Notes under the pieces: model-generated
The model's input: only the letters and a program-made list of their open reading frames with translations
What the model was told of the DNA's origin: nothing
The model's database searches: none
In this document: positions 2 to 64,000 of the stretch, piece after piece
How the letters are laid out: each line of letters opens with the position of its first letter
Numbering within the stretch: position 1 is the stretch's first letter
Assembly (NCBI GenBank): GCA_043745805.1
Contig: JAYTSD010000004.1
Coordinates: 213,150 to 277,149, forward strand
Length of the DNA: 64,000 nt
Source: Fibrobacteria bacterium
GTDB lineage: Bacteria; Fibrobacterota; Fibrobacteria; UBA11236
Direction of reading: 5' to 3'
Program-made: the position numbers and the translations under genes

Positions 2-406
2 TTTATTGCGGATGATTATTTTGGTTTTGATGATGCCATTTATGCAGCTTGCCGAGTCCTTAATATTATGGATAAAACCGGCAAAACTATCACCCAACTT
101 CTGGAAGGTGTTCCCCGTTACCCCAATACTCCTGAAATCCGTTGCGAATGCGAAAATGATGATGAAAAATTTAAAATCACTGCCAAAGCTGTAAAGTATT
201 TTTCCGAGAATTATAAAGTTTTAGCCATAGATGGTGTGCGCATTTTGTTCTCTGATGGTTGGGGTCTAGTGCGAGCTTCCAATACACAACCCACTCTAGT
301 CACACGCTTTGAAGGCAAAACGGCTGCACGCCGTGATGAAATTAAAAATATGGTACTAAACAAAATCCAAGAGTTTGGTAATATCATCATTGGATCAAAG
401 CATTAA
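2..406 (+). CDS. Phosphomannomutase/phosphoglucomutase, C-terminal part (5' end outside the window)
   Basis: Frame is open from base 2 (FIADDYFGFDDAIYAACR...). C-terminal DGVRILFSDGWGLVRASNTQP motif is typical of AlgC-type PMM/PGM. Confidence 0.9.
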   Translation, partial: FIADDYFGFDDAIYAACRVLNIMDKTGKTITQLLEGVPRYPNTPEIRCECENDDEKFKITAKAVKYFSENYKVLAIDGVRILFSDGWGLVRASNTQPTLVTRFEGKTAARRDEIKNMVLNKIQEFGNIIIGSKH

Positions 407-425
407 AAAAATATTCTTGTTAAAT

Positions 426-458
426 AAAAAAAGGACGATTACATAATCGTCCTTTTTT
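426..458. terminator. Bidirectional intrinsic terminator
   Basis: A7-GGACGATT-acat-AATCGTCC-T6 between convergent genes. Confidence 0.85.
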
Positions 459-519
459 GCAGCGTTCCTCTGTTACATAGCAATTATCTGACCTAGCAGA
501 GGAGTTCCGTTGCGCGGGA

Positions 520-2499
520 TTATTTTATTTGTCCATTCCTTTTTAGCCAATCTTTCATTGCTAGAAATAAAGCTTGTTTCTTTGCATTACTATTTTCGCC
601 AGCGATTTGAAAAACACCACGTTTTTGGCTGAAAAGATATTCGCTTTCCCCAGAAGAACTAACTGGAGCGAGATTATTCAAATCCCAATCGATGGGTATT
701 TGCTGTGGAAATTGCAAAAGTAACTGCTTCAATTCCAATAAAGCCTCCGCAGATATTTGGACATAAAATCGTATGGCTTTTGTATTATCATTAGGATTAC
801 TTTTAATATTTAAAACTCTTCCTTTTTCCGAGATATAAATATCGACCAAACAAGGTTTTGATTCCAGTCCATCAAAACGAAATTCTTGTGAACTTTGTAA
901 AATGCGATAATTCAATAATGGATCCATAAATTCCAAATCGATTGGAATAATTCTTTCTCGTAATTCTAAAGAATCAGCAGTATAACGTTGTATCAGATTG
1001 GATCCTTGTGGATTCGAAATGTGAAAAACCTCAACCCCTTTTCCATTCATTTCTATCATCATGGAACCTACGCGCTCTGATGAACTTGTATTTTTATACC
1101 ACGATGACTTTATGTTTTCTAATAAATGAATATTTTGAAAATAATCGACTTGTTTAAAACTGCGTAGGCGCATTGCTTTGCCACGTGTCACATTATCCGG
1201 AACAAGCACAAAACTGACTTGCTGCCCAGGCTTTAATTGTGAACTATTTAACGATTGTTCATAGGTGTGAAGGTTATACCGCAATAATGCATCTTGATGT
1301 CCAATGCCTCCTTCACCGAGATTTTGTAATTCCCCTCCTAACGGTAAAACTATATAATTAGGTAATGAGGTATCGCCTACAAAGCTTATTTCATCAAGTC
1401 CCCAAAATTGCAAATCATTTCCCTGTAATAATTTTTTCTTATTGATCTTAAATTTCCAGTATACTTCTCCATTAATAGATCCAAAATTAGTCGGCTCAAT
1501 AGCTTGCGCATCAATTATAAAATATGGCATTGTTTGTTGAGATTCACTGGCAAGATTAAAAATCCACTTCTTTTCTACCATGCCACTTTGTAGATAAATT
1601 TTCAAAACAATCTTATTGCTAAACCCTTCCAAAAGCATATTTGAATTCATTTCTAAACTTGGAGCCAATTTATATTGGCTTTCCATATCGGCATTCAAAT
1701 ATTTATTGTGAGGGATGCTTTTACCATTTGCGCTCCAAACTACCGAGTCAATCAAGGCCATAGGAGCATCCACTTGCACTTGAAAAGCCCAAGGCAATTG
1801 GCTAAATGAGGCTCTGATGGTATCACCCATATTTCCATCTATCACATAGCCATAATTAAGCTTGAGCGTGTCGGCTATAGTTGTTTTGCGACCAGGTTCG
1901 ATATGAATAGGAATATTATTTAAAGGATTAGCCCCTTCGTATTGAACAGTTAATAAATAATCCCCAGTTGGAATTTTGTTAAAGTTGAAGCGACCATTTA
2001 ATTCCGACTCAATTGTCCATGGGGTTCCAATTAAATGTAAAGTGAATTTTTTGTGGTGCAAGGGATCGTTCGTCCAAGCCACGCCTTCAATGGATCCGAG
2101 GCTGTCGAGACGTAATTTACTTAAATTATTTTCCATCTCGGGATTGTAATTATAATCGTATACCAAGCCCAAATTTACGCTATCGGTTGCAATTAATAAA
2201 TAATTACCGGCATCCATTTTAGTAAAGCTGAATTCACCATTATCATTTGAAGTTGTTCGAAATATGGCTCCATCCTTACGAGAATACATAGAGACTGAAG
2301 CATTTTTTAGTGGATCATAATGTGGGTTTAAAATCATCCCTGTAACATTACCCGCTTCGGTGCCGCCACCGCGGGGTGTAGAACTCAACCTATTATCTAA
2401 ATCAAAGGTTTGGTCGCAACCTATTAATAACAAGCCTGCGAAAAAGAAAAACAGCAATGTTTTACGATTTTTTTTCACAGAGGCGAAACTCAATTCCAT
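520..2499 (-). CDS. Lipoprotein with carboxypeptidase-regulatory-like (beta-sandwich) domains, partner of a TIGR02147-type gene
   Basis: Lipobox LLIGC, GGGTEAGN linker, G-x-F-x-F...G-x-Y repeats. Start placed at ATG 2499 (GAGGA RBS upstream) rather than the track start 2580. Confidence 0.7.
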   Translation of the reverse strand: MELSFASVKKNRKTLLFFFFAGLLLIGCDQTFDLDNRLSSTPRGGGTEAGNVTGMILNPHYDPLKNASVSMYSRKDGAIFRTTSNDNGEFSFTKMDAGNYLLIATDSVNLGLVYDYNYNPEMENNLSKLRLDSLGSIEGVAWTNDPLHHKKFTLHLIGTPWTIESELNGRFNFNKIPTGDYLLTVQYEGANPLNNIPIHIEPGRKTTIADTLKLNYGYVIDGNMGDTIRASFSQLPWAFQVQVDAPMALIDSVVWSANGKSIPHNKYLNADMESQYKLAPSLEMNSNMLLEGFSNKIVLKIYLQSGMVEKKWIFNLASESQQTMPYFIIDAQAIEPTNFGSINGEVYWKFKINKKKLLQGNDLQFWGLDEISFVGDTSLPNYIVLPLGGELQNLGEGGIGHQDALLRYNLHTYEQSLNSSQLKPGQQVSFVLVPDNVTRGKAMRLRSFKQVDYFQNIHLLENIKSSWYKNTSSSERVGSMMIEMNGKGVEVFHISNPQGSNLIQRYTADSLELRERIIPIDLEFMDPLLNYRILQSSQEFRFDGLESKPCLVDIYISEKGRVLNIKSNPNDNTKAIRFYVQISAEALLELKQLLLQFPQQIPIDWDLNNLAPVSSSGESEYLFSQKRGVFQIAGENSNAKKQALFLAMKDWLKRNGQIK

Positions 2500-2515
2500 T
2501 GTGTAGTCCTCAGTT

Positions 2516-3340
2516 TCATTTGCGCGTGAGAGGGAATAATTGCAAATTGCATTGGAAAATTCTATCGGGCTTAATTTCATCTAAAGCCATTTTTAATATT
2601 CTTTTTCGCAATAATCGAATTTCTTCTACCGCGGCCAAAAAACTAGTGTCCGACAAAGTTACCGTGAGCACAGAAATATCTCGGTCAGGATGAGGAATTC
2701 TATCAATGGCTGTTTTCGCTAATTCCATAGTAGCCACTTGAAAATTCGCCACCTGCAAAGATTTTACTTCATCCCCAGTGCCAATTAAATTTTCTTTTTG
2801 ACGATAAATTCCTTTACCGTCTTTTTCGATTAAACCTAATTGCGTCAACACTTCTATCGCTTCTTTGGCATCTTGGGTTTTGATACTGGGCAACATTTTC
2901 TTTGCAAGCGCTTCATAATCATTTCGAAAAGGAAAGAAAAATAAAAGCTCCCTAATAGCAACATAATGCCATTTGGAAAATAATTCGTATTGTGATTCTT
3001 CTATTTTTTTTATCCGCAAAGGTTTAATAGAAAGCAAATTACGGAAAAAGCGATTTTTATCCGCTAAGGTTTTGGACTGATTAAAGGCGACTAAGTTTTC
3101 AAAATAAAAAGTGGATTTTTTGTCGAGCTGCAAAGCTTCGGCTAATTTGCTTACATGCGAGAGTGGTAAATTACGTTTTTTGGTAATGATATTGGATAAA
3201 AAACCACTGGAGCTCACACCCATTTTAGCCAATAAATAACGATGGGAAAACTTAGGCTTAATCGCCTTCATTTCCTTCAACCAATCCGATAGATATTGGC
3301 GATAATCGTAATATGCAAAAAGATCCAATGAACTGTTCAC
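2516..3340 (-). CDS. TIGR02147 family protein (HTH plus DUF4423-like putative regulator)
   Basis: YYDYRQYL...FSHR N-terminus, WHYVAIRELL, RDISVLT and terminal CNLQLFPLT motifs. Confidence 0.9.
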   Translation of the reverse strand: MNSSLDLFAYYDYRQYLSDWLKEMKAIKPKFSHRYLLAKMGVSSSGFLSNIITKKRNLPLSHVSKLAEALQLDKKSTFYFENLVAFNQSKTLADKNRFFRNLLSIKPLRIKKIEESQYELFSKWHYVAIRELLFFFPFRNDYEALAKKMLPSIKTQDAKEAIEVLTQLGLIEKDGKGIYRQKENLIGTGDEVKSLQVANFQVATMELAKTAIDRIPHPDRDISVLTVTLSDTSFLAAVEEIRLLRKRILKMALDEIKPDRIFQCNLQLFPLTRK

Positions 3341-3417
3341 AAGATCTAGTATAGATTGCAGAATTAAATGGCGCTGCCCATTTTAAAAAATTACTGCTTA
3401 CAAATTGGGAGCAGGTT

Positions 3418-4530
3418 TTAACCCTTATAGGTATCGCCAAAGACAATATCCGGCTCATTTTTTCCATTTAGCTCTTTTACTTCATGGAATACACGACCCC
3501 GATAATTCACCACACTGGCAAAAAAAGCATCTAATTCAGTAAAAAATTCATCCGTAGATTGTGACCTTAATAAGGTGGTACGCCCTTTGGCACTATTGGG
3601 TAAGCATTTCATAGTACGCGCCGCCATTTGCTTGAGCTTGCCTAGCACGCGCATTTCTATGTCCATTTCTTCGCGCAATAATTCGGCATAGAGTCGAAAA
3701 ATATCGCGTTGTTCATCGAGTGTCGGCTCTTTAGGAATAATGCCGGCATAGACATCGGCCACTTGATTGAATATCCAAGGATTATGCATCGCGCCGCGAC
3801 CAATAGCCACACCGTCTACGCCCCATCGCTCTAATTTATCCACCACATCGTCTACCGTGAGGATGTCCCCATTGCCCACCACGGGAATGCTTGCACGACT
3901 TTTGGCTTCCGCCATAATCTCCCAATTGGCCAAACCCTTATACCCTTGTGCGCGCGTGCGGCCGTGAATCACTAAGGCACTAGCCCCTTCGCCTTCAACA
4001 ATGCGTTGAGTTTCGGGTAAGTTGATGCAATCATCACTCCAACCAATTCGCACTTTTACTGTAACCGGGATTTTAACTGCCTTTTGCACTTTGCCGATAA
4101 TATTTTTCAAATTATCTAAGTCTTTAAGCAAACCGGAGCCGCCACCTTTTTGCACTACTTTGGGCGCGGGGCAACCACAATTGATTTCCACAAAATCAGC
4201 ACCGCAGTCTTCTACCATTTGCGCTCCCCAAGCCATGCGCTCAGGTTCGCCACCAAAAATCTGTACCGTAAAAGGACGTTCTTCTTCCGCAAAAGCCATT
4301 TGTCGACAACATTTGGGATTCAAGCGGGTAATCCCTTCCACCGAAACAAATTCCGAAACCATTAAGCCTGTGCGTCCGCCCGCTAGGCGAGAGACTAATC
4401 GACGAAAAGAAATATCGGTTACCCCAGACATAGGCGCTAAATACACATTGGGGAAAATATCTTTTCCCGCTACCGTGTAGCGTTGTTTAATCTTGGCGGC
4501 TCTCGCCAATAAATCTTCGTGATAAGTCAT
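3418..4530 (-). CDS. dusB: tRNA-dihydrouridine synthase (DusB/NifR3 family)
   Basis: LAPMSGVTD, EINCGCP, VKVRIGW, IHGRTR and GNGDI motifs. Confidence 0.9.
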   Translation of the reverse strand: MTYHEDLLARAAKIKQRYTVAGKDIFPNVYLAPMSGVTDISFRRLVSRLAGGRTGLMVSEFVSVEGITRLNPKCCRQMAFAEEERPFTVQIFGGEPERMAWGAQMVEDCGADFVEINCGCPAPKVVQKGGGSGLLKDLDNLKNIIGKVQKAVKIPVTVKVRIGWSDDCINLPETQRIVEGEGASALVIHGRTRAQGYKGLANWEIMAEAKSRASIPVVGNGDILTVDDVVDKLERWGVDGVAIGRGAMHNPWIFNQVADVYAGIIPKEPTLDEQRDIFRLYAELLREEMDIEMRVLGKLKQMAARTMKCLPNSAKGRTTLLRSQSTDEFFTELDAFFASVVNYRGRVFHEVKELNGKNEPDIVFGDTYKG

Positions 4531-4553: not shown

Positions 4554-5813
4554 CTATGCAGCTACGAAAGCATTTTTATAAAGAGGAAAATGCGCACATA
4601 ATTCTTTAACGTCATTATGAATCGTTTGCAAATACGCTTCATCGCCTACATGCATTATTGCTCTATCAATAAAATCCGCTACTTGACGAATTTCACTCGC
4701 ACCCATGCCACGTGTAGTAATAGCTGCCGTGCCTAAGCGCACGCCCGAGGGATCCATGGCTTTTCGCGTATCAAAAGGTACGGTACTACGACTGCAAGAA
4801 ATTCCAATTTTATCGAGCGCCACTTCAGCTGCTTTACCCGCAACATCTTTGTTACGTAGATCAACAACCATCAAATGATTATCCGTGCCGTCGGTTAAAA
4901 TGCGATAACCTTTTTCCATTAATGCCGACGCTAAAGTTTGTGCATTGATAATCACATTTTTCGCATAGGTTTGGAATTCAGGTTGCAAAGCTTCTTTAAA
5001 GCAAACCGCTTTAGCAGCATTGATATGATCATGTGGGCCGCCTTGTATACCAGGGAATATGGAACGATCGATATCCTTTTGGAATTGGCTTTTGCACATG
5101 ATAATCGCGCCGCGCGGGCCACGCAAAGTTTTGTGAGTAGTCGTAGTTACTATATCAAAAAGAGGCACGGGATTCTCAATAGCTTTACCGGCTATGAGGC
5201 CTGCGACATGCGCAATATCACCAAAAGTGATTGCACCCACTTCGTCGGCAATACTTTTAAAAGCTTTCCAATCGATATTGCGTGAGTAAGCGGAGAAACC
5301 GGCGATGATCATTTTCGGACGTTCACGCAAAGCAATTTCGCGTACTTTGTTCATATCAATACGACAAGTTTTTTCATCCACTTCATACTGTGAAAACTGA
5401 TACATCATACCGGAAAAATTCACGGGATGGCCATGGGATAAATGTCCACCATGATCGAGTTTTAAACCAAGCACTTTATCGCCAGGTTTTGCCACCGCTA
5501 AATACACCGCTAAATTGGCAGGCGAACCGGAAAGTGGTTGAATATTAACATGCTCAGCACCGAATAATTCTTTGGCGCGCGCAATGGCTAAAGTTTCCAT
5601 TTGGTCGATGACTTCATTGCCCCCATAATAGCGTTTGCCAGGGTAACCTTCGGAATACTTATTGGTGAGTACGGATCCCATGGCTTCTAAAATTGCTGGG
5701 CTCACATAATTTTCGGAGGCGATAAGCTCAATGCCTTCTTCTTGGCGTTTGGCTTCATGCTGAATAATTTTCAGGATTTCGGTATCGGTGTGCTTTAAGT
5801 TTTGCATAGTCAT
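4554..5813 (-). CDS. glyA: Serine hydroxymethyltransferase
   Basis: LIASENY, NKYSEGYPGKRYYGG, TTTTHKTLRGPRG (PLP lysine). Confidence 0.98.
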   Translation of the reverse strand: MTMQNLKHTDTEILKIIQHEAKRQEEGIELIASENYVSPAILEAMGSVLTNKYSEGYPGKRYYGGNEVIDQMETLAIARAKELFGAEHVNIQPLSGSPANLAVYLAVAKPGDKVLGLKLDHGGHLSHGHPVNFSGMMYQFSQYEVDEKTCRIDMNKVREIALRERPKMIIAGFSAYSRNIDWKAFKSIADEVGAITFGDIAHVAGLIAGKAIENPVPLFDIVTTTTHKTLRGPRGAIIMCKSQFQKDIDRSIFPGIQGGPHDHINAAKAVCFKEALQPEFQTYAKNVIINAQTLASALMEKGYRILTDGTDNHLMVVDLRNKDVAGKAAEVALDKIGISCSRSTVPFDTRKAMDPSGVRLGTAAITTRGMGASEIRQVADFIDRAIMHVGDEAYLQTIHNDVKELCAHFPLYKNAFVAA

Positions 5814-55434: not shown

Positions 55435-55564
55435 TTGTGATTTTCTGATGTTGTTCCAAATCTTTATGAATGATATTTAAATGGTATAAGTATTACGTGA
55501 TGCTTATCACAGCATGTCCGATTGTGCTTGCTATGTTGTAGGCAGAACAACCCGGAGAATATTT

Positions 55565-56449
55565 ATGTCAACTCAAGATTGGAATGCCTATTGGGTAGAA
55601 CGTTTAAAGAAAGAAATTCGCGCAAGAAATTATTCTAAAGAAACGGAGAAAAATTATGCGTTGGCGCTGCGAACATTTTTGGAAAAATGTCCAGGGAATC
55701 CCAAAGAAAAAAGTCAGAGAATTGTGCAATCCTTTCTCTTGGATATTCGCGAGAAAAATGGATTAAATGCTTCGACCATTAATCTTTATCGTGATGGACT
55801 AAGTTTTTTCTTTCATCATGTTTTGAAAATGCCAGAAGTCATTGAAGGAATTCCGAGGTTAAAAGAACAACAGGCTTTACCTGATGTGTTTGATATTCAT
55901 TCGATGGCTCGTATGTTAAATGGCATTGAGAACCCTAAACATCGACTTGCGCTATCTTTAATTTACGGCTGTGGACTTAGGGTTGGTGAAGCTGCGTCTC
56001 TGCAACTCAACGAAATTGATTTTGCGCGCAAAACTATTATGATTAGGCAAGGCAAGGGTGGAAAAGATAGAATGGTTATGCTACCTGAAAGCTCGACTCC
56101 CCTTCTCCGCGCGTATCTTAACGACTATAGTCCGAAGAAGTATTTATTCGAAACCTCCATTCCGGGAAAGCCTTTAAATAAGCGTACTTTTCAACTGGTT
56201 TTTAAAGCTGCCTGTGGAAAGGCTGGAATTATTCAAAAAGGAGGGATTCACAGTTTGCGTCATTCCTTTGCCACTCATTTACTGGAGAATGGGACGGATT
56301 TACGGTATATTCAAGCGCTTTTGGGGCATTCTAATTCCAAAACCACGGAGAGATATACCCGGGTGGCGACGAATCATGTCGTTTCCATCAAAAGTCCGAT
56401 GGATATTTTACCTTTAACAGCAACGGATCCGCTTCGCACTAGGTCATAA
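55565..56449 (+). CDS. Tyrosine recombinase, integron-integrase-related but lacking the IntI-specific insertion
   Basis: SAM-like N-terminus (RNYS.ET..Y); GLR, GKGGKDR, HSLRHSFATHLLE, LLGH and ERYT catalytic residues intact. Only about 15 aa between LPES and YLF. ATG 55565 follows a GGAGA RBS. Confidence 0.92.
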   Translation: MSTQDWNAYWVERLKKEIRARNYSKETEKNYALALRTFLEKCPGNPKEKSQRIVQSFLLDIREKNGLNASTINLYRDGLSFFFHHVLKMPEVIEGIPRLKEQQALPDVFDIHSMARMLNGIENPKHRLALSLIYGCGLRVGEAASLQLNEIDFARKTIMIRQGKGGKDRMVMLPESSTPLLRAYLNDYSPKKYLFETSIPGKPLNKRTFQLVFKAACGKAGIIQKGGIHSLRHSFATHLLENGTDLRYIQALLGHSNSKTTERYTRVATNHVVSIKSPMDILPLTATDPLRTRS

Positions 56450-56487
56450 AATCGGGACTTATTACGAATCAGATCACACAAGTGGTA

Positions 56488-56494
56488 GTTATGC
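56488..56494 (+). other. attI-like core site (GTTATGC)
   Basis: First GTT after the integrase. It complements GCATAAC at 57950-57956 and has no hairpin site body upstream. Confidence 0.65.
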
Positions 56495-56650
56495 AACATA
56501 TTGCGTTTAATATGTTGCTACTCGATTTTCCAATCGAGTAGCAAGTTAAATAGTCTGTTTTTAGGGGGCTGAAAACCCAAATCTTAGAAGACTCTGGTTT
56601 GGAATTCTTTTGCTAAGGTATTAAATTAGAATTTGCGGAGATCAAAAAAT

Positions 56651-57268
56651 ATGAAAACTTGGACAACGCTATCCTTTTGTATGGTCTGTCTTCTATGTCC
56701 AGAAGCCAAAGCCTCCTGCGATACTTCTGTCGATCCAAATTTGGAATTTCATCTTGCGGATAAAGACACTCAAATAAACATCCATGAGGGGAATAGTGTT
56801 TATGGCATTAAAGGTGGCCCTGATACAATAATGCTCATAATCAGTTCACCAGGAATGATTCGATTTACAAAATCGCTTTTAAATTCGAACAAAATGGATA
56901 CGCTCTACAAAGTACTCTATCAAGATACGATACTCTCAGCAGAAAGTTGGGATATCAATTTTAGTAACTTCAAAAAAATTATTGCGGACAAAGGCATTTC
57001 ACCACACCAAGCCATTTTTGACAGAAAAACTCCGCTTGATACGATATATATTGTCCCTGATCCAAATGGCAAGCTTTGTCTCTCTAGTGGTGGCTTTTTT
57101 GACTTCCAAATCACATGGATTGGCCATGATGTCGCACAATGGTATAATTCACCAACGATTTTGAACAAACGGGCCAGCAACGATAAATCCCATCGGAAAC
57201 GCTTTTATTTGGATGGGAAATTTTTCTGGAAAAATGACGTGTTTCTTACGAATGGGAAATCACAATAA
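56651..57268 (+). CDS. Secreted hypothetical protein (unit 1)
   Basis: Signal peptide MKTW...EAKA; GGAG RBS. Confidence 0.7.
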   Translation: MKTWTTLSFCMVCLLCPEAKASCDTSVDPNLEFHLADKDTQINIHEGNSVYGIKGGPDTIMLIISSPGMIRFTKSLLNSNKMDTLYKVLYQDTILSAESWDINFSNFKKIIADKGISPHQAIFDRKTPLDTIYIVPDPNGKLCLSSGGFFDFQITWIGHDVAQWYNSPTILNKRASNDKSHRKRFYLDGKFFWKNDVFLTNGKSQ

Positions 57269-57286
57269 ATCACTGACTGGGTAGCT

Positions 57287-57895
57287 GTGGAATCATTAAT
57301 CAAATACCTTACTCTAACAAGAATTATATTTGTCATTTTTTCTTGCTCCGTGGCAATTCTGATTTTTCCAACTTCCTGGCAGCAAAAGTTAATGCTGATT
57401 CAGTTTGTTTCGGATTGGGGGAAATATATTGGGATAACTGCATTGGTATCTGGAGGAATCCTTTTCACATCACTTTTAACAAACTCGTTGGGGTTCACTT
57501 ATGGAGTTACCAGTAAACTCTGGAAACGGAAAGAATTTAAATCCAAATTGAAGAAGTACGTATCTTCTCTCGATGCTTTGGAGCAAGCTGTTTTGAGAGA
57601 ATTTTATACCCAAAGACAAAACTCTATCTTGGTTCCATATAACGATGTGAAAATTCAGTCTCTTCTAGCTAAAGGCATTCTTAAATTGGTTAGTCCCGTT
57701 GGGAAAATCTCTCTAGCAGGTCTGATGGTTAGTGTATTCATTTCTGATGCGGCATCCGACCTTATTGATAACGCCGCCCTTGGGTTGCCCGAAGAGTTAG
57801 TGCCATCCGAATCGACAATCAATTTTATTAATCGCAATAGACCTAGTTGGTTGAATGAAATTCGGAGAATGAAAGAGATATTTGATTGGTATTAG
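57287..57895 (+). CDS. Superinfection exclusion B (SieB)-like membrane protein (unit 1)
   Basis: Two N-terminal TMs, then L...EQAVLREF...Q....VP.....IQSL..KGIL winged-helix-like pattern. Confidence 0.7.
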   Translation: MESLIKYLTLTRIIFVIFSCSVAILIFPTSWQQKLMLIQFVSDWGKYIGITALVSGGILFTSLLTNSLGFTYGVTSKLWKRKEFKSKLKKYVSSLDALEQAVLREFYTQRQNSILVPYNDVKIQSLLAKGILKLVSPVGKISLAGLMVSVFISDAASDLIDNAALGLPEELVPSESTINFINRNRPSWLNEIRRMKEIFDWY

Positions 57896-57949
57896 ATTAG
57901 CATTCAGTGAAAGTAAATACGCCCCCTAAAAACGAAACGCAATACGATC

Positions 57950-58199
57950 GCATAACACAGCCCAGGGTGCTCCGCGCGTGTTTCCACACGCGCTCCGGGG
58001 CTTCGCCCAAATGGTTTTTTGGATTGGTCCGGCTGTTCAAACTCCCTTTCGAGACGGCGCGACGAAACGTCGCTTGCTCTCAAGGGGTTTTCACAGCACG
58101 CTGCGGGCGTTCATTACGGGGGCTTCCGCCCCACTCCATTCTCGTCCTCGCGTTACGGCCCTAATCCAAAAAACCACTTCACCCTCTGCAACGTTGGGC
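57950..58199 (+). repeat. attC-like site, long type, copy 1 (250 bp)
   Basis: GCATAAC...GTTGGGC with nested stems (e.g. TGGTTTTTTGGATT/AATCCAAAAAACCA); 6 substitutions versus the copy at 62312-62561. Confidence 0.85.
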
Positions 58200-58356
58200 G
58201 ACAGGGGCCTCGAAAAGTTGGCCTTCAGCCAAAGTATTGAAACTATTTTTTGGGGGCGAAAAGAAAAATAATGGAAAACAATAAAGAATGAAAACCAAAA
58301 ACGAAATTCAAAAAAATCAAATGATCGTTTTGCTTTAAAAAGTAAAGTAAGATGCC

Positions 58357-58419
58357 GTATAACAAAAGTTTCAAAAATCCTTCGCACGGCTGTGCTCACT
58401 GCTTAACTGTGTGTTATAC
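58357..58419 (+). repeat. Degenerate canonical-type attC inside unit 2
   Basis: GTATAAC-5nt-TTTCAAAA...GCTTAAC-5nt-GTTATAC; spacing and the L' GCTTAAC match aadA-type attC. Confidence 0.65.
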
Positions 58420-58556
58420 GGCCGAAAAAATTTGAAAATATGGAATCGAAAAGAATGGTTAGTCAATCGGTTTGAAGGGGCGTAATTTTAAGGCCTGGTA
58501 TTGAGGTCATTGGGAAATGTAAATGAAGCTACATTTCAAACAAAAGGAGGGAAGAG

Positions 58557-59282
58557 ATGAAAATAACCCTACAAAACCTTCTATTATTTCTTTGCCTAAC
58601 TGGATCAGTTATTGAGGCAAAGGGAAACGGTGGAACTGTACACGTAAAAGGATACACCCGTAAAGATGGAACCTATGTTCAGCCACATAATCGGACAGCT
58701 CCGGACGGAAACTTTAATAATAATTGGAGCACCCAAGGGAACGTAAATCCATATACTGGGGAAGATGGAACAAAAACAGAACCATCCTCGTCTTTAAATT
58801 CGTTGTCTCCTTCACCTGACGCAAGATCGTCCGCAACTGTTCGTACAAATACGACAACTCAGAGTTTTGGAGTTACCTCAGAATCAGAACCCGAGATAAC
58901 GACTGATAACTACGGCTTCTACAAAAGGCACCTAGAATATTATCACGGGGTATTATCGGATCAAAATTCAAACGCATTGGCCAAAGAAAGTGCGCGAAAC
59001 GTAATCAGACAGTATGAAGCATCGGTTAAACTTTATGAATTAGAGTCAGCAGATCCTCCCACGACAAATAAGGAAGACGCTGGTTCCAAATCGAAATTAG
59101 CAGACAAAGATTTTTTGAAAGAGTGCAGTGATCAGTTCAAAATAAATACGTGGGTTCCTGTAGCTTGCAGGGATGACGAAATGTGTCGGAAAATAGGAAC
59201 GCACGGCTTCGAAAATGAGACATGGCTTCCTGCCGCTTGTGCCCAAACACGATCACTGCAAAGCATTACTCCAGAAAAATAG
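58557..59282 (+). CDS. Secreted hypothetical protein (unit 2)
   Basis: Signal peptide; conserved-looking VKGYTRKDGTYVQPH.RTAPD...NNWST.GN.NPYTG motif; AAGGAGG RBS. Confidence 0.8.
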   Translation: MKITLQNLLLFLCLTGSVIEAKGNGGTVHVKGYTRKDGTYVQPHNRTAPDGNFNNNWSTQGNVNPYTGEDGTKTEPSSSLNSLSPSPDARSSATVRTNTTTQSFGVTSESEPEITTDNYGFYKRHLEYYHGVLSDQNSNALAKESARNVIRQYEASVKLYELESADPPTTNKEDAGSKSKLADKDFLKECSDQFKINTWVPVACRDDEMCRKIGTHGFENETWLPAACAQTRSLQSITPEK

Positions 59283-59472
59283 ATTTTAAGCAAGTTAATT
59301 TATTTGGGTTAGACAAATTGTCTAAAATATTGATTCACTCCCAAGAGGACCATCTGAAAAGATCTAAATGACCATCATTTATGGTCGCCGCATAACAATC
59401 GAGTCTCTTTAGCCAAGTTATGTCAAGAGGAAGACAAAGACCGCCCCCAAAGAAATATCGAGGCCCACGATC

Positions 59473-59504
59473 GCCCAACAAGCGCCATGGCGCGAACGTT
59501 GGGC
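59473..59504 (+). repeat. attC-like site, minimal (32 bp) deletion derivative of the short type
   Basis: GCCCAAC-aa-GCGCCATGGCGC-gaac-GTTGGGC. Confidence 0.75.
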
Positions 59505-59600
59505 GACAGGGGCCTCGAATTGTGGCCCTGCGGGCCAAAGATAAAGATTATTTTTTGGGGGCGAGAAATAAGCAAACTAATTCAAGAAAACGAGCGCGGT

Positions 59601-59873
59601 ATGAACCAAGTTGATCCAATACTAAAATGCAGAAAATGTGGAAAAGAAATCTCGAAATTTAAACAGAATGCAGAACAGATTTATGAAGGCATGCATAGGC
59701 TTTGTTTTCATTTTGAGTATGAACACGAAGGCGAACCAGATGAATCCTGCGCAGACGATTCTTCCTGTCCAAACTTCAAAATCAAAGTTTATGAAAAAAA
59801 ACTGAAAGAAGCTGGAGTAGATCTCCAAAAAGTACTAGAAGAAGAAATTAAAAAAGGATGGAATCCGGATTAA
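59601..59873 (+). CDS. Small Cys/His-rich protein (unit 3)
   Basis: CxxC...MH..CFH..YEH...PD..C.D..CP pattern; ATG 59601 inside the unit. Confidence 0.7.
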   Translation: MNQVDPILKCRKCGKEISKFKQNAEQIYEGMHRLCFHFEYEHEGEPDESCADDSSCPNFKIKVYEKKLKEAGVDLQKVLEEEIKKGWNPD

Positions 59874-59882
59874 AAAACAGCC

Positions 59883-59947
59883 GTGTAACAATCTATTTAA
59901 CCTGTCAAGCCCTTCGCCCTCGTTTGCAGGTTAATCGGGCATTATAT
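59883..59947 (+). repeat. Degenerate canonical-type attC inside unit 3 (core GTT decayed to ATT)
   Basis: GTGTAAC-aatct-ATTTAACCTG...CAGGTTAAT-cgggc-ATTATAT, 9 nt after a stop codon. Confidence 0.65.
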
Positions 59948-59977
59948 GGATAAGAATAAAATTAATGAAGGAATGAA

Positions 59978-60694
59978 ATGGAAGACAAGCCTATCCTGGA
60001 TAAAAACAAAACCGAGTTCATAAAATTAAACAACTTGATAAATCAAATTGTTTACGAAAATCGCTTTTCATTGAGTGATGCAAATCGGGTTTATTTGGAT
60101 TCGATCTTAAAATATTCTGATACTATCTTTAACTCGATTTTAAAACGAGATACCCTATTGTTTCGTTCTCGCATAAACAAAATAAATCTCGATAATTTAA
60201 GTGGTGAGGATGTCACACATCCGATAAAAGATATGGGGGCGCCTCCTAAAGCACTTGCTGCCGCTGGAAGAATAAATCCTGTTGGAATTCCTTACCTTTA
60301 TTGTTCCGGCGAGGAAAAAACGGCAGGCGCGGAATCAAGACCGGATAGTGGAAATTACATTACGATTGCAAAAATAAATGTGTTGAAAGATCTAAAAATT
60401 GCGGATTTCACAGTGAACTTTTCAGGAAACGAATTAAGCGAATATTTTCAAATATTATGTTCAGTATTTAGCACTCAATGGCCTGCCGAATACAAAAACC
60501 ATTATTTAATTTCACAATATCTGGCTTCACATTTGAAGACAAATGGATTTCGTGGCATTAAATACAAAAGTGAAGTTAATGCCGATGGGACAAATTTTGC
60601 TCTTTTTCACAAAGAAGATTATGAAATTCGAGAAATCTATTCCAGGCAAACTGTCCGAGTTGATTATTATTTTCATACACCAGGTCATGGGTGA
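59978..60694 (+). CDS. RES-domain protein (putative NAD+-degrading toxin or defence effector; unit 3)
   Basis: MGAPP...AGRINPVGIPYLY...AESRP...GF.GI.YKS...G.NFALF (R, E, S residues). Confidence 0.88.
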   Translation: MEDKPILDKNKTEFIKLNNLINQIVYENRFSLSDANRVYLDSILKYSDTIFNSILKRDTLLFRSRINKINLDNLSGEDVTHPIKDMGAPPKALAAAGRINPVGIPYLYCSGEEKTAGAESRPDSGNYITIAKINVLKDLKIADFTVNFSGNELSEYFQILCSVFSTQWPAEYKNHYLISQYLASHLKTNGFRGIKYKSEVNADGTNFALFHKEDYEIREIYSRQTVRVDYYFHTPGHG

Positions 60695-60787
60695 CTCTAA
60701 TCCGGAACAATTCTTATGTCCTCAGTCTTCGACCTTAAAATACGACAAAGGAGAAGACGCCCCCAAAAAGAAGCGAGGCCCCCGATC

Positions 60788-60843
60788 GCCCAACATGCGC
60801 CATAGCAAAATGATAACACTTCGCTATGGCGCGAACGTTGCAT
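60788..60843 (+). repeat. attC-like site, short type, copy 1 (56 bp)
   Basis: GCCCAAC-at-GCGCCATAGC-aaaatgataacacttc-GCTATGGCGC-gaac-GTTGCAT. Confidence 0.85.
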
Positions 60844-60944
60844 GCAATTGCCCCCACACAAGAGAATGCAAATTACGGAATTACAAAACCGCCCCCCAAG
60901 AAAGAGAGCAGCGAAAATAACGATGATATTCTAATTTATTCTAA

Positions 60945-62108
60945 ATGAACAAAGTTATTTCACCGAAAACAGTACTTATCCTTGGAGCTGGGGCAAGCCA
61001 TGACTGCGGCTTCCCCTTAGGTATTAAACTAATCGACCAAATCATTACGGCGCACCAGGATAAAAAGTTTGTATTATCACTTCGTCGAATTCTTTACAAT
61101 GCCCGAGATTATCTTCGTCGAAATAATCTTTTTGATTTACTTCCTCCCGAAATCGGAGTAGTTCTTTTAAGCCATCAACCATATAGAATATTTGATTTGA
61201 ATGATAAAATCCTTACTGATTGGGTGGTCACCTTAAACGTGTTCAAGTCCATCGACGAATTTATCTCGTACCATAAAAAATATTCGCTGTTGGCGAAGAT
61301 TTCTATCCTGCTAATTCTGTCGAAGTGTGAACTAAAGGAATTTTTTGACAACAGGCATCAAAATGATCAAGTGAAGTCCTATTTTGGACCAGAGCGAACT
61401 TGGTACAATGCCCTTTGGGGAAATATCACCAAAAAGGGGCCAACGTTTCAACAACTAGAAGAAATTCTTAAGACAATTCACATCATAACTTTTAACTATG
61501 ATCGCTCTCTTGAATTTTTTCTGGTGGAAGCAATAAAGAAATTTTTTCCTGAATCCGAGAAGCCTTATACCGATCTTCCAATCACTCACGTCTACGGGTC
61601 CCTTGGACAATTGGATACCCAAAGTGATCTTTTTAATCCATACCAGCAAGTTCCCTATATGAGTGGAAGCACTATTCCTGATGGTTTCCAAATGAATACA
61701 TTCAGTACCTACTTAGGGGAAAAGCAAGAAGATGCAATGCGGACAAAGTACGATGAGCATTTAATCAAATTGGCCACATCGATTGAAACCTATGGGAACG
61801 CCTATCCAATTGATAAAGCGGAAAAAATACAGCAGATGATTATCGAATCAAAAAACACCTACGTTTTTGGATTCTCTTTTGCTGAGCAGAACATGAAAAT
61901 CCTTTTCAAGGGAACTCCTAAGAGACAGCCCCAATGGATATCCAAAGGCACATTCGATGGCTCATGCTATGGAATTTCTAGAGAAATGCAGTTTGATCTC
62001 AAAACATTTTCGTCTAAGTATTTTAAAGGAACTTCTGATTTCTTAGACGATTCTAGAAGAAAAGTTTCTGTCGCAGATTTTTTCACCGACTATTCCATAA
62101 AGATTTAA
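60945..62108 (+). CDS. SIR2-like domain protein (unit 4)
   Basis: VLILGAGAS...FPLG, IITFNYDRSLE, HVYGSL, FGFSF..QN. Confidence 0.85.
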   Translation: MNKVISPKTVLILGAGASHDCGFPLGIKLIDQIITAHQDKKFVLSLRRILYNARDYLRRNNLFDLLPPEIGVVLLSHQPYRIFDLNDKILTDWVVTLNVFKSIDEFISYHKKYSLLAKISILLILSKCELKEFFDNRHQNDQVKSYFGPERTWYNALWGNITKKGPTFQQLEEILKTIHIITFNYDRSLEFFLVEAIKKFFPESEKPYTDLPITHVYGSLGQLDTQSDLFNPYQQVPYMSGSTIPDGFQMNTFSTYLGEKQEDAMRTKYDEHLIKLATSIETYGNAYPIDKAEKIQQMIIESKNTYVFGFSFAEQNMKILFKGTPKRQPQWISKGTFDGSCYGISREMQFDLKTFSSKYFKGTSDFLDDSRRKVSVADFFTDYSIKI

Positions 62109-62311
62109 AGCCGCTTTTTGAATATCATTTCAAAGTAAAACAAATTGCACACAAACGTTGCATGGTGAAATGCTATGCACTTCACCATACCTGAAGAAGC
62201 AATTAATTAATTACATGAAGAGGGGGCGGAAAGAAAAAATTATTTGTCATCCCCTGTGTGTGGGGGCAACTCGGACTGCGCGCCGAAGCGGCGCTTGCCG
62301 GCCTGCGGCGC

Positions 62312-62561
62312 ATGCAACACAGCCCAGGGTGCTCCGCACGGGTTTCCACCCGCGCTCCGGGGCTTCGCCCAAATGGTTTTTTGGATTGGTCCGGCTGTTC
62401 AAACTCCCTTTCGAGGCGGCGCGACGAAGCGTCGCTTGCTCTCAAGGGGTTTTCACAGCACGCTGCGGGCGTTCATTACGGGGGCTTCCGCCCCACTCCA
62501 TTCACGTCCTCGCGTTACGGCCCTAATCCAAAAAACCACTTCACCCTCTGCAACGTTATCC
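62312..62561 (+). repeat. attC-like site, long type, copy 2 (250 bp)
   Basis: ATGCAAC...GTTATCC; body near-identical to 57950-58199. Confidence 0.85.
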
Positions 62562-62740
62562 AAAAAACCGGGGGCAAGATTATAAAAGAAAATAGCGAAG
62601 ACCGGCCAGCGAAGAATCAAAGCAAAGACAATTAGCAAAAGACAAGAAGGAACGAAGAAACTAATTAGCGAAGACAAGACGCTGGCCGGAAGAAAGATCC
62701 TTCGTGGTCTATACCCTGGGCCCCCGTTTTTTCAGATAAC
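62555..62740 (+). other. ORF-less cassette-like unit 5
   Basis: Complementary arms 62555-62575 and 62720-62740 enclose an A-rich segment with an internal IR CCGGCCAGCG/CGCTGGCCGG. Confidence 0.75.
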
Positions 62741-62935
62741 ATCGCGCCATCGTGCTTCGCTCCGCCGTACCGGCTCCGCTCGGGGCTTCGCCCAAATGGT
62801 CTTGCAGGGTGGTTTGGGCATTTCCAATGCCACGCTCCGGGCGCCGCCTACGGGGGCCATACGGCCCCACTTCGGCGACGTCCTCGCGTACAAACCAACC
62901 CTGCAAGCCCACTTCACGCTGGCGCTACGTTGTAC
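62734..62935 (+). repeat. attC-like site, intermediate type (202 bp)
   Basis: AGATAAC-atc-GCGCCA...TGGCGC-tac-GTTGTAC; shares GGGGCTTCGCCCAAATGGT, TACGGGGGC, CGTCCTCGCGT and CCACTTCAC with the long type. Confidence 0.8.
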
Positions 62936-63030
62936 GCAATATGGCAGTTTAAAGTGTTGCCTTCCATCCCTTCGGGACGAAAGACAAAAAAAGAATTTAT
63001 TTTTTAATGGGGCGAATTATAATACCAAAA

Positions 63031-63600
63031 ATGAAAATCAAAAAAAATATTAGGAATAAACTTTATTTTGCATTCGCACTTATCATGTCAATTTTAGGAA
63101 TTTCCGCCTGTGGACCTCATTTGATCAACGAAAAGAAATTCTTAGAGGAAAATCCCTTAAAGGAAGATGATAGTGAAAAATACTCAATAGAAATTAGAGT
63201 CTGGCAAAACTGTTCCCTTTCCACATTTTTACTGTTATTATTTTGGAATAGCTGCGAAGAGAATTACACGGTATATGTCAAATTGGAAACGAAAGATGCT
63301 AATGACACTGGAAAATCCGTTTCCTTCGAAAGTGTGAAAGTTGAAGCAAATGGAATTGAAAAAGAACTCATTCCAAAAGATTTACCCCCTTCAATAATGA
63401 AATTTAAAAAAGACTATCGAGAAGGCATAGAAATATCCGAGGGCTTTTATGTAGGGAAAGAGTTCACATTCCAAGATAAAAATAAGATTAGGGTGAAATC
63501 GAAATTCAAGCTGATGGAAAAAAACCAATTTATTGAAAAAGATGGTTTATTTGTAGTAAAGAAAGAAAGAAAAATAGGTTTCATGTATTATCGAATTTAA
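63031..63600 (+). CDS. Hypothetical lipoprotein (unit 6)
   Basis: Basic N-terminus, hydrophobic core, ISAC lipobox; ATG 63031 lies just inside the left arm. Confidence 0.75.
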   Translation: MKIKKNIRNKLYFAFALIMSILGISACGPHLINEKKFLEENPLKEDDSEKYSIEIRVWQNCSLSTFLLLLFWNSCEENYTVYVKLETKDANDTGKSVSFESVKVEANGIEKELIPKDLPPSIMKFKKDYREGIEISEGFYVGKEFTFQDKNKIRVKSKFKLMEKNQFIEKDGLFVVKKERKIGFMYYRI

Positions 63601-63644
63601 AATCAAAAAGACGCCCCATTAAAAATCAAGAACTGCCATACGGC

Positions 63645-63700
63645 GTACAACATGCGCCATAGCAAAATGATTTCACTTCGCTATGGCGCGAACGTTATGT
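63645..63700 (+). repeat. attC-like site, short type, copy 2 (56 bp)
   Basis: GTACAAC-at-GCGCCATAGC-aaaatgatttcacttc-GCTATGGCGC-gaac-GTTATGT; body differs from 60788-60843 only in 2 loop bases. Confidence 0.85.
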
Positions 63701-64000
63701 GAAAGTTTGCCTAAAAGTGTTGCCGGCCGAACTTGCAGTTCGCCCGGCAATTTTATTGAGATGAATTCTATTATGGGGCGGGGAAGAGAAGAAATTACGA
63801 ATTACGAAAGAAAAGACGCACGCCGGAAAGAGAATTGCAAACCGAACATCTTTTCAATACCTTATTGTGCGAACGGTCTAAATGTTTCACTATTTTAGAC
63901 CCTGCTCTTATCGGCTTAAATTCGAACCAGCTATGCTGCTAATTTAAGTTTAAAAAAATCATTTGGCGACATCATTCCTAATCCCGAATGTGGCGCATAG

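Follow-up and report, generated by a model that had tools for sequence, protein, structure and literature searches.

A tyrosine recombinase lacking the I2 insertion and its adjoining cassette array: a probable integron-like platform in a Fibrobacterota genome

Genes and features of the locus

The stretch of DNA analyzed here (the window, 64,000 nt) lies on contig C4 of a sediment Fibrobacterota genome (G000) whose assembly is 99% complete; toward its end it carries a gene for a short tyrosine recombinase resembling the integron integrase IntI, followed on the same strand by an attI-like junction and a tiled series of gene cassettes separated by hairpin-forming elements. From its sequence, the locus is probably an integron-like platform for gene capture, consisting of a dedicated recombinase, an attI-like dock and co-oriented mobile cassettes bearing attC-like sites. 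The features of the locus, with a slash marking the point at which a cassette begins, are as follows.

55514 to 56449, + strand: short IntI-like tyrosine recombinase, 311 aa if started at the ATG at 55514, 295 aa if started at that at 55562
56470 to 56494, + strand: attI-like junction CACACAAGTGGTA/GTTATGC, 21 nt past the stop codon, where the first cassette begins
56488 to 57956, + strand: cassette 1, two open reading frames (ORFs), one 211 aa and signal-peptide-like, the other 202 aa and SieB-like; end score 14.0
57950 to 58199, + strand: junction J1, A-type, 250 nt, branched and attC-like, 98% identical to J4
58193 to 59479, + strand: cassette 2, 241-aa ORF with a signal-peptide-like N-terminus; end score 14.0
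59473 to 59504, + strand: junction J2, B-type, 32-nt hairpin with spacers of 2 and 4 nt and a perfect 12-bp L stem
59498 to 60794, + strand: cassette 3, 90-aa Cys-rich ORF and 238-aa RES-domain protein; end score 15.5
60788 to 60843, + strand: junction J3, B-type, 56-nt hairpin with a perfect 10-bp L stem and spacers of 2 and 4 nt
60837 to 62318, + strand: cassette 4, 387-aa ORF (60945-62108), cores GTTGCAT and ATGCAAC
62312 to 62561, + strand: junction J4, A-type, 250 nt
62555 to 62740, + strand: cassette 5, 186 nt; end score 13.5
62734 to 62935, + strand: junction J5, shortened A-type, 202 nt, one arm missing, nhmmer profile match at 1.9e-30
62929 to 63651, + strand: cassette 6, 197-aa lipoprotein-like ORF; end score 16.0
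63645 to 63700, + strand: junction J6, B-type, 56-nt hairpin with a perfect 10-bp L stem and spacers of 2 and 4 nt
63694 to 64000, + strand: cassette 7, start only, cut by the contig end

Architecture of the array

The original prediction described at least seven co-oriented cassettes; all 13 of the motifs that it quoted are present where it placed them, and six complete cassettes and the start of a seventh lie on the strand of the recombinase, the seventh being cut by the assembly because base 64000 of the window is the end of contig C4. The ends of each complete cassette are complementary to one another in 6/6 cases: GTTATGC at 56488 pairs with GCATAAC at 57950, GTTGGGC at 58193 with GCCCAAC at 59473, GTTGGGC at 59498 with GCCCAAC at 60788, GTTGCAT at 60837 with ATGCAAC at 62312, GTTATCC at 62555 with AGATAAC at 62734 (cassette 5, at 6 of 7 bases) and GTTGTAC at 62929 with GTACAAC at 63645. 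The cores that face each other across a junction are mismatched at five of the six junctions, J2 being the sole matched one. The predicted complementarity of 7 nt at the cassette ends is thus present, but it was understated; its real extent is 12-25 nt, and unbiased repeat finding recovers 21 nt at 90% for cassette 6 and approximately 21 nt for cassette 3. The bodies between cassettes, measured from AAC to GTT with both 7-nt cores included, are 250, 32, 56, 250, 202 and 56 nt long, in agreement with the earlier description; of the classical inverse cores RYYYAAC and GTTRRRY, AAC and GTT are found at all six junctions, but the strict GTTRRRY rule is likewise broken, by five of the seven cassette starts.

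The array was compared with chance by a gapped score of end complementarity, in which the first and last 30 nt of GTT...AAC pairs 150-4000 nt apart are aligned; an ungapped 7-mer pairing test is too noisy in A+T-rich DNA, and the gapped score was used in its place. At a score of at least 12 there are nine pairs in the last 7.5 kb of the window versus three in the other 56 kb, and all three of the latter score exactly 12.0, the threshold itself. Six of the nine array pairs are cassette end pairs and three fall inside cassettes or junction elements; cassette 4 (60837-62318) is below the threshold, its ends matching over 9 nt and the rest only past an inserted stretch. Genome-wide, 64 pairs score at least 13 in 3.95 Mb, and nine of these belong to the array of the window. 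The array is far beyond chance.

The cassettes carry unrelated cargo. The ORF of cassette 1 at 57287-57895 belongs to the SieB superinfection-exclusion family (PF14163 at 2.5e-24), and the RES protein of cassette 3 matches PF08808 at 2e-14; the layout of cassette 3 (59601-60694), a small ORF paired with the RES protein, resembles a toxin-antitoxin pair, the 90-aa ORF being without a family match. The ORF of cassette 2 has no family among the NCBIfam, Pfam and PADLOC models, and for the 387-aa protein of cassette 4 the Pfam and NCBIfam models gave no family, the only match being a weak, N-terminal, SIR2-like one (PADLOC Aga_SIR2, 9.9e-05), beyond which PADLOC returned nothing for seven cassette proteins. 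No convincing ORF is found in cassette 5, where the listed ORFs only overlap repeat elements. A tblastn search of the seven cassette proteins against the genome and the loci collected at that point gave self-matches only, and counts from a scan for sigma-70 promoters and terminators are no higher than in shuffles.

The recombinase

The I2 insertion is held to define integron integrases and to permit recombination of folded attC sites, and it is taken as a criterion by integron detection tools. The recombinase of the window is a two-domain protein with matches to PF13495 and PF00589 (the latter at 1e-40) in which the catalytic residues of tyrosine recombinases (R, K, H, R, H/W, Y) are all present; R139, K164/K167, H229, R232, H255 and Y264 do not vary among 32 homologues, and neither does a C-terminal S-P-x-D, whose counterpart in the alignment with VchIntIA is SPL. 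It falls under the cut-off of every curated model. The integron integrase model TIGR02249 gives 193.8 bits for a cut-off of 265, in two stretches that flank the missing insertion, and PRK15417 gives 144 for 435; the best NCBIfam match is the XerA model (198.9 bits, cut-off 220), with XerC at 161.7 (335) and XerD at 145.6 (330). When the protein is aligned to VchIntIA (PDB 2a3v), query residues 200-221 lie opposite chain residues 179-242, so that approximately 40 IntI residues are absent. The split TIGR02249 match, this gap of ~40 residues and a motif spacing of 65-66 aa rather than 106-107 aa bear out the claim that the enzyme lacks the IntI insertion, and the protein does run through LPESSTPLLRAYLNDYSPKKYLFETS in the direct passage that was described. 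The AlphaFold model has a predicted local distance difference test value (pLDDT) of 88.5 and its best PDB match is 2a3v with a template modeling (TM) score of 0.73, XerA coming behind; the modeled fold of the recombinase is IntI-like. A 93-aa ORF upstream of the integrase has no Pfam family.

The attI-like site

The GTT of the attI-like junction lies 39 nt beyond the integrase stop codon. The sequence CACACAAG.GGTA/GTT is common to the window and locus L005, from another Fibrobacteria bin, and GGTA/GTT or a similar sequence occurs in L011, L006 and L008. The two nucleotides before GTT are TA or GA at attI-like sites versus AC at junctions between cassettes (36 of 44 junctions). In L005 the attI-like site CACACAAGGGGTA/GTT, which is close to that of the window, lies about 900 nt past the end of the integrase match and is directly followed by a module (4769-4840) that is the same as the 5' module of cassette 4 in the window (60837-60905, GTTGCATGCAATTGCCCCCACACAAGAGAA...); the shared module hints that one cassette type may occupy different array positions in different genomes.

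Junction elements

Two types of junction element are found in the window. The B type (J2, J3, J6) is compact, reading AAC, 2 nt, a perfect stem of 10-12 bp, a loop, 4 nt (GAAC) and GTT; J3 and J6 are 96% identical between CAAC and GTT while their flanks differ. J2 alone has both flanks of the same type, and the region 59442-59563 there folds into a 120-nt hairpin of -43 kcal/mol, with a z score of -7.3 on either strand (DNA fold). None of the three shows the classical attC geometry of 5-6-nt spacers on both arms and extrahelical L-box bases.

The A type (J1, J4 and the shortened J5) is 200-250 nt long and G+C-rich. Ten copies, three from the window, two from contig C9 of the same genome and five from the Fibrobacterota locus L006, were aligned, and a branched fold of 64 pairs in 8 helices is common to all ten. 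Paired cells make up 94.8% in the alignment versus 75.4% in shuffles (0/500 shuffles as high), and compensatory change is seen at 42 of the 64 pairs, the corresponding counts being 24.4 for shuffles and no more than 19 for slid partners. Matches to the A-type sequence profile are confined to the array pieces of this genome and to L006, with zero in the 12 canonical-IntI loci of the phylum (L097-L108); Rfam has no family for either junction type, whether the whole window is searched at gathering scores or the array at E values up to 5.

Relatives and their linkage to arrays

The closest proteins to the recombinase come from Fibrobacteria metagenome bins at 50-66% identity. A wider homologue scan, restricted to one genome per species, yielded 80 loci; of the 85 homologue rows that they supplied, 79 have a K..R-to-HxLRH spacing of 65-70 aa (unreadable in 5), versus 106-107 aa in 20 of 24 canonical IntI rows. 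End-complementary GTT...AAC pairs number 118 in the 393 kb downstream of the 80 homologues versus 27 in the 589 kb upstream, and where at least 2.5 kb of flank is available, at least two pairs are found in 23 of 41 loci downstream versus 5 of 65 upstream; the proposed linkage of homologous recombinases to such arrays is upheld by these counts. In 15 of the 23 positive loci the first unit begins 76-225 nt past the end of the integrase match, and the inverted repeats that unbiased searches recovered in L006, L008 and L011 likewise terminate in GTT/AAC. Array-positive loci are found in Fibrobacterota (L006, L008), Spirochaetota (L037, L040, L049), Bacteroidota (L022, L025, L027, L034, L044), Firmicutes (L021, L031, L078), Nitrospirota (L019) and a Gemmatimonadaceae bin (L051). 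In 97 of 101 cassettes (25 sources) the longest ORF and the integrase share a strand, which is evidence against an inversion switch.

The phylogeny was built from 130 rows by a quick IQ-TREE search and rooted on the genome's own Xer-like protein. The 23 rows bearing I2, which include IntI1, the IntI of a cyanobacterial plasmid and Fibrobacterota IntI, form one clade with a support of 100; 103 short rows are grouped with a support of 87, the array-positive loci being scattered throughout, and a y4qK row lies outside the array-linked family on a long branch. The short family therefore stands apart from the I2-bearing IntI clade, as the proposal of a separate integrase clade had it, and the recombinase appears to be a sister-type relative of integron integrases without I2.

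Several relatives differ in length or setting. The homologues in L020, L025, L026, L034, L036, L039, L043, L068, L069, L071, L074-L076, L082 and L084 have open frames of 544-598 aa, that is, with an N-terminal extension of ~300 aa; they come mainly from Bacteroidota, L068 being a Saccharibacteria bin. The Fibrobacterota relatives P0090-P0117 (405-499 aa) also have N-terminal extensions together with the same short catalytic spacing. On a Chryseobacterium plasmid (NZ_CP041688.1, L112, 4758-9004) a member of the short family, named in its record 'site-specific tyrosine recombinase/integron integrase', is followed by five small co-oriented genes.

The same genome and phylum

No protein of G000 scores over the TIGR02249 cut-off, which is passed in 37 of 201 Fibrobacterota genomes, including some of the same family as G000. 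These canonical Fibrobacterota IntI are 27-34% identical to the enzyme of the window and 52% identical to IntI1; on these identities, an origin of the enzyme as a recent deletion derivative of a neighboring canonical IntI was rejected. Separate Xer-like genes are present on contigs C45 and C46 of G000.

A second short recombinase, 41% identical to that of the window, is encoded on contig C9; its array runs on the opposite strand from an AGGA/GTT junction just upstream of the gene, the classical divergent layout, and uses the same A-type element. In this C9 platform (L113, 1-6022) the genes of a 3.3-kb cassette (332-3682) run against the direction of the array; they encode a C-5 cytosine methylase, a GmrSD_N (DUF262) protein and a HEPN protein, a defense-type module. 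Further array pieces lie at the ends of contigs C29 and C39. Four sediment metagenome runs of one study, two of which may be its source, contain the stretch; their contigs present no arrangement other than those of the assembly and of these other array pieces of the genome, to which the loose contig ends at junctions belong. Partial cover in runs X3 and X4 accompanies a depth of 3-4 and is discounted. In another genome of the same family, which is complete, a highly regular array with a period of ~500 bp and dozens of end pairs of identical score (L097, G044 contig C1, 216-6531) lies just upstream of two tandem canonical IntI genes.

Site grammar

The grammar of the sites was read from 60 junctions of 19 sources, 44 of which have an L stem of at least 6 bp. 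With GTT and AAC required by the detector, the consensus of cassette starts is GTT R K N Y G M M A T; G is found at position 8 in 51 of 60, A at position 11 in 55 and T at position 12 in 40. AAC is followed by A in 43 of the 44 junctions, and 36 of them have a 3' spacer 2 or 4 nt longer than the 5' one. Mismatches between paired ends peak at position 11, with 80 of 94 distinct pairs (23 sources) versus at most 18 at positions 7-15; in 77 of the 94 the start has A and the end has C, a combination that yields a C·A mismatch if the top strand folds and a G·T wobble if the bottom strand does.

For comparison, four class 1 attC sites of one plasmid were run through the same routine, the comparison sets being small: in two sites the short first stem places the spacers at 5 and 6 nt, a third has 0/6 and a fourth 3/3, and in three of the four an extra base interrupts the L stem after 3 bp. 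By hand reading, four sites of the canonical Fibrobacterota array L099, from the same family as G000, have 2/2 spacers and a one-base bulge in the L stem. The expectation that the site grammar is unlike that of class 1 attC holds for the 12-nt R box, the longer 3' spacer, the unbroken L stems and position 11.

Proposed mechanism and alternative explanations

Complementary ends within cassettes, mismatched flanks at junctions and a directional array together are the footprint of exchange within AC/GTT, between sites made whole only in an excised circular cassette. In the proposed platform the docking site (attI-like, ...GGTA/GTT) lies just past the stop codon of the recombinase, and the adjacent enzyme would excise and insert the cassettes. 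Its substrate would be a folded single strand in which an extended R stem is joined through a small asymmetric internal loop to an L stem, the latter capped by a loop or by the branched 200-nt body. The choice of strand may be signaled by two features, the greater length of the 3' spacer and R-stem position 11, a C·A mismatch when the top strand folds and a G·T wobble when the bottom one does. Position 11 would replace the extrahelical bases that I2 reads in classical sites. A folded strand is considered the likelier substrate, because the stems are kept by compensation and the asymmetries are able to tell the strands apart.

Several observations weigh against this interpretation. The evidence on the strand conflicts, as position 11 favors the bottom strand and the A-type wobbles favor the top strand or an RNA: in the A-type body, 8 of 10 copies keep a top-strand G·U at columns 193/233, and a count by hand gives 21 top-strand wobbles versus 9 would-be bottom-strand ones, an excess that would point, opposite to position 11, to the top strand or to an RNA. 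Within the window itself the exact A/C pattern at position 11 occurs in one of six end pairs, and by hand reading a 2-nt mismatch covers positions 10-11 in cassettes 2, 3 and 6. Ten of the 41 loci with sufficient downstream flank have zero pairs, and since the cross-phylum detector demands GTT and AAC, these triplets are given rather than found and other cores are missed. A y4qK-type member of the wider family adjoins an IS91 transposase (L111) and not an array. The tree comes from a quick search with one Xer sequence as its outgroup and does not settle in what order IntI, the short family and y4qK branch. No excision, circle or reordering was found in the contigs of the four sediment metagenome runs.

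The same platform and enzyme could instead operate by Xer-like exchange on double-stranded sites, with the hairpins a by-product of inverted binding arms. This is judged unlikely. The enzyme does lack I2, the element credited with single-strand recombination (PMC7790495), and the R arms of at least 12 nt, as in Xer binding arms, and the L stems, unbroken duplexes without extrahelical bases, would suit such a reaction; however, the arms are 32-250 nt apart and no 6-8-bp central region separates inverted arms, the L stems and the branched body are both preserved by compensatory changes, and the asymmetries at position 11 (77 of 94) and in the spacers (36 of 44) fit a folded strand. A cluster of attC sites lacking its own integrase (CALIN), served in trans, now or formerly, by a canonical IntI and with an unrelated Xer-like gene for a neighbor, is very unlikely: canonical IntI are indeed encoded in the phylum (37 of 201 genomes, same family included), but no TIGR02249 match over the cut-off exists in G000, where distinct Xer-like genes are present on C45 and C46, and the fixed short distance from integrase to array recurs in 15 loci of several phyla. 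The canonical array L099 also has another site type (2/2 spacers, bulged L stem), and the A-type profile finds no match in the canonical loci L097-L108.

Inverted repeats that bound every unit and a tyrosine recombinase alongside could also be expected of a shufflon-like system, in which the recombinase flips segments between terminal inverted repeats and thereby switches expression, and the 3.3-kb C9 unit has genes opposite to the array direction; the constant orientation of the longest ORF in 97 of 101 cassettes, and units that hold unrelated complete genes rather than alternative gene ends, make this highly improbable. Least credible is a pile-up of non-autonomous elements resembling miniature inverted-repeat transposable elements (MITEs) with terminal inverted repeats, or of intergenic repeats resembling repetitive extragenic palindromes (REPs). 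In its favor are the terminal inverted repeats of the units and the G+C-rich structured repeats between genes, yet the units are tiled head to tail with no target duplications and no transposase, they share GTT/AAC ends while being otherwise unrelated at their ends, and they are confined to the flank of the recombinase (9 of 64 genome-wide pairs in 7.5 kb).

The gene-capture platform with a folded substrate remains the preferred explanation. A broader proposal, in which a multi-phylum sister family captures cassettes on folded single-stranded hairpins without I2, strand choice is encoded in the DNA only, by a lengthened R stem bearing a bottom-strand G·T at position 11 and by a one-sided spacer, I2 is dispensable and maybe later, and the three-way-junction body of Fibrobacterota has a further function, is tentative and somewhat doubtful in its entirety.

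Significance and comparison with known systems

No description of cassette arrays run by I2-less recombinases was found in the full-text literature searched, which comprised articles without their supplements and excluded subscription journals. Cury et al. 2016 reported that 21 recombinases of this kind lie close to attC sites in genomes devoid of IntI, and judged them not to be IntI (PMC4889954); Smyshlyaev et al. 2021 described the insertion as 'not fully conserved' in an integron-like subgroup, the available text mentioning no arrays (PMC8138268). Néron et al. 2022 found very few complete integrons in Firmicutes and Bacteroidetes (PMC9024848), and it is a consequence of detection based on I2 that complete integrons appear almost absent from Firmicutes and Bacteroidota. 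Escudero et al. 2020 considered that I2 confers single-strand recombination and that intermediates are lacking (PMC7790495).

Should I2-less enzymes operate the arrays of Fibrobacterota, Spirochaetota, Bacteroidota, Firmicutes, Nitrospirota and others, present counts of cassette platforms would be biased, a pool of mobile genes, defense systems included, would have been overlooked, and the origin of single-strand recombination would become directly testable with natural I2-less enzymes. Under the broader proposal above, the integron lifestyle would be independent of I2 and may predate it, supplying the 'missing intermediates' of Escudero et al. 2020 (PMC7790495).

The parallel orientation of integrase and array, put forward as an unusual trait, is seen in the window but is not new in itself, since it is known for true IntI of Treponema; moreover, the second platform of the genome is divergent. 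The Treponema 'inverted integrase' integrons are alike in that the integrase is transcribed toward attI and the cassettes, in chromosomal arrays with attC sites of up to 132 nt (PMC3607928, PMC4889954). As far as the survey texts available go, these enzymes are IntI: surveys that required the additional domain of IntI listed integron integrases in Spirochaetes (PMC2426708), and Cury et al. count the Treponema inverted integrases among IntI (PMC4889954), whereas the Spirochaetota loci identified here (L037, L040, L049) are of the short type. The DUF1874 motif is comparable to the A-type element as a multistem motif in consecutive intergenic regions that Weinberg et al. 2017 proposed as a possible unusual attC; it differs in that, in the available part of its description, no integrase stands beside it (PMC5737381), and the A-type element matches no Rfam family.

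The Xer recombinases (XerC/D, XerA, with dif) resemble the enzyme of the window in size, in a two-domain build without the extra domain and in long binding arms; the latter differs in lying under the XerA, XerC and XerD cut-offs and in being tied to an array rather than to a single dif site. The y4qK-type recombinases share the short architecture and 36-40% identity, but an IS91-family transposase adjoins them, and no such family is found among the downstream ORFs of the window.

The closest counterparts are the classical integrons (class 1 IntI1; VchIntIA, the nearest solved structure). Both systems have a dedicated tyrosine recombinase, an adjacent dock and a directional array of cassettes, most of which hold a single gene and are mostly orphan, with defense- and toxin-type cargo in both; AAC...GTT cores (found at all six junctions of the window), chimeric junctions and hairpin sites whose R and L stems flank an internal loop and end in a variable top are also common to them. 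Classical integrases contain I2, whereas the enzyme of the window is without it and falls in a separate clade. Its sites have R stems of 12-25 nt with a conserved 12-nt box rather than 7 nt, spacers of 1-3 and 4-7 nt rather than the 5 and 6 nt of two of the four class 1 sites, and unbroken L stems of 6-13 bp in place of those broken after 3 bp in three of those four; they are further set apart by the conserved C·A/G·T at position 11 and, in some sites of 250 nt, by a conserved branched body.

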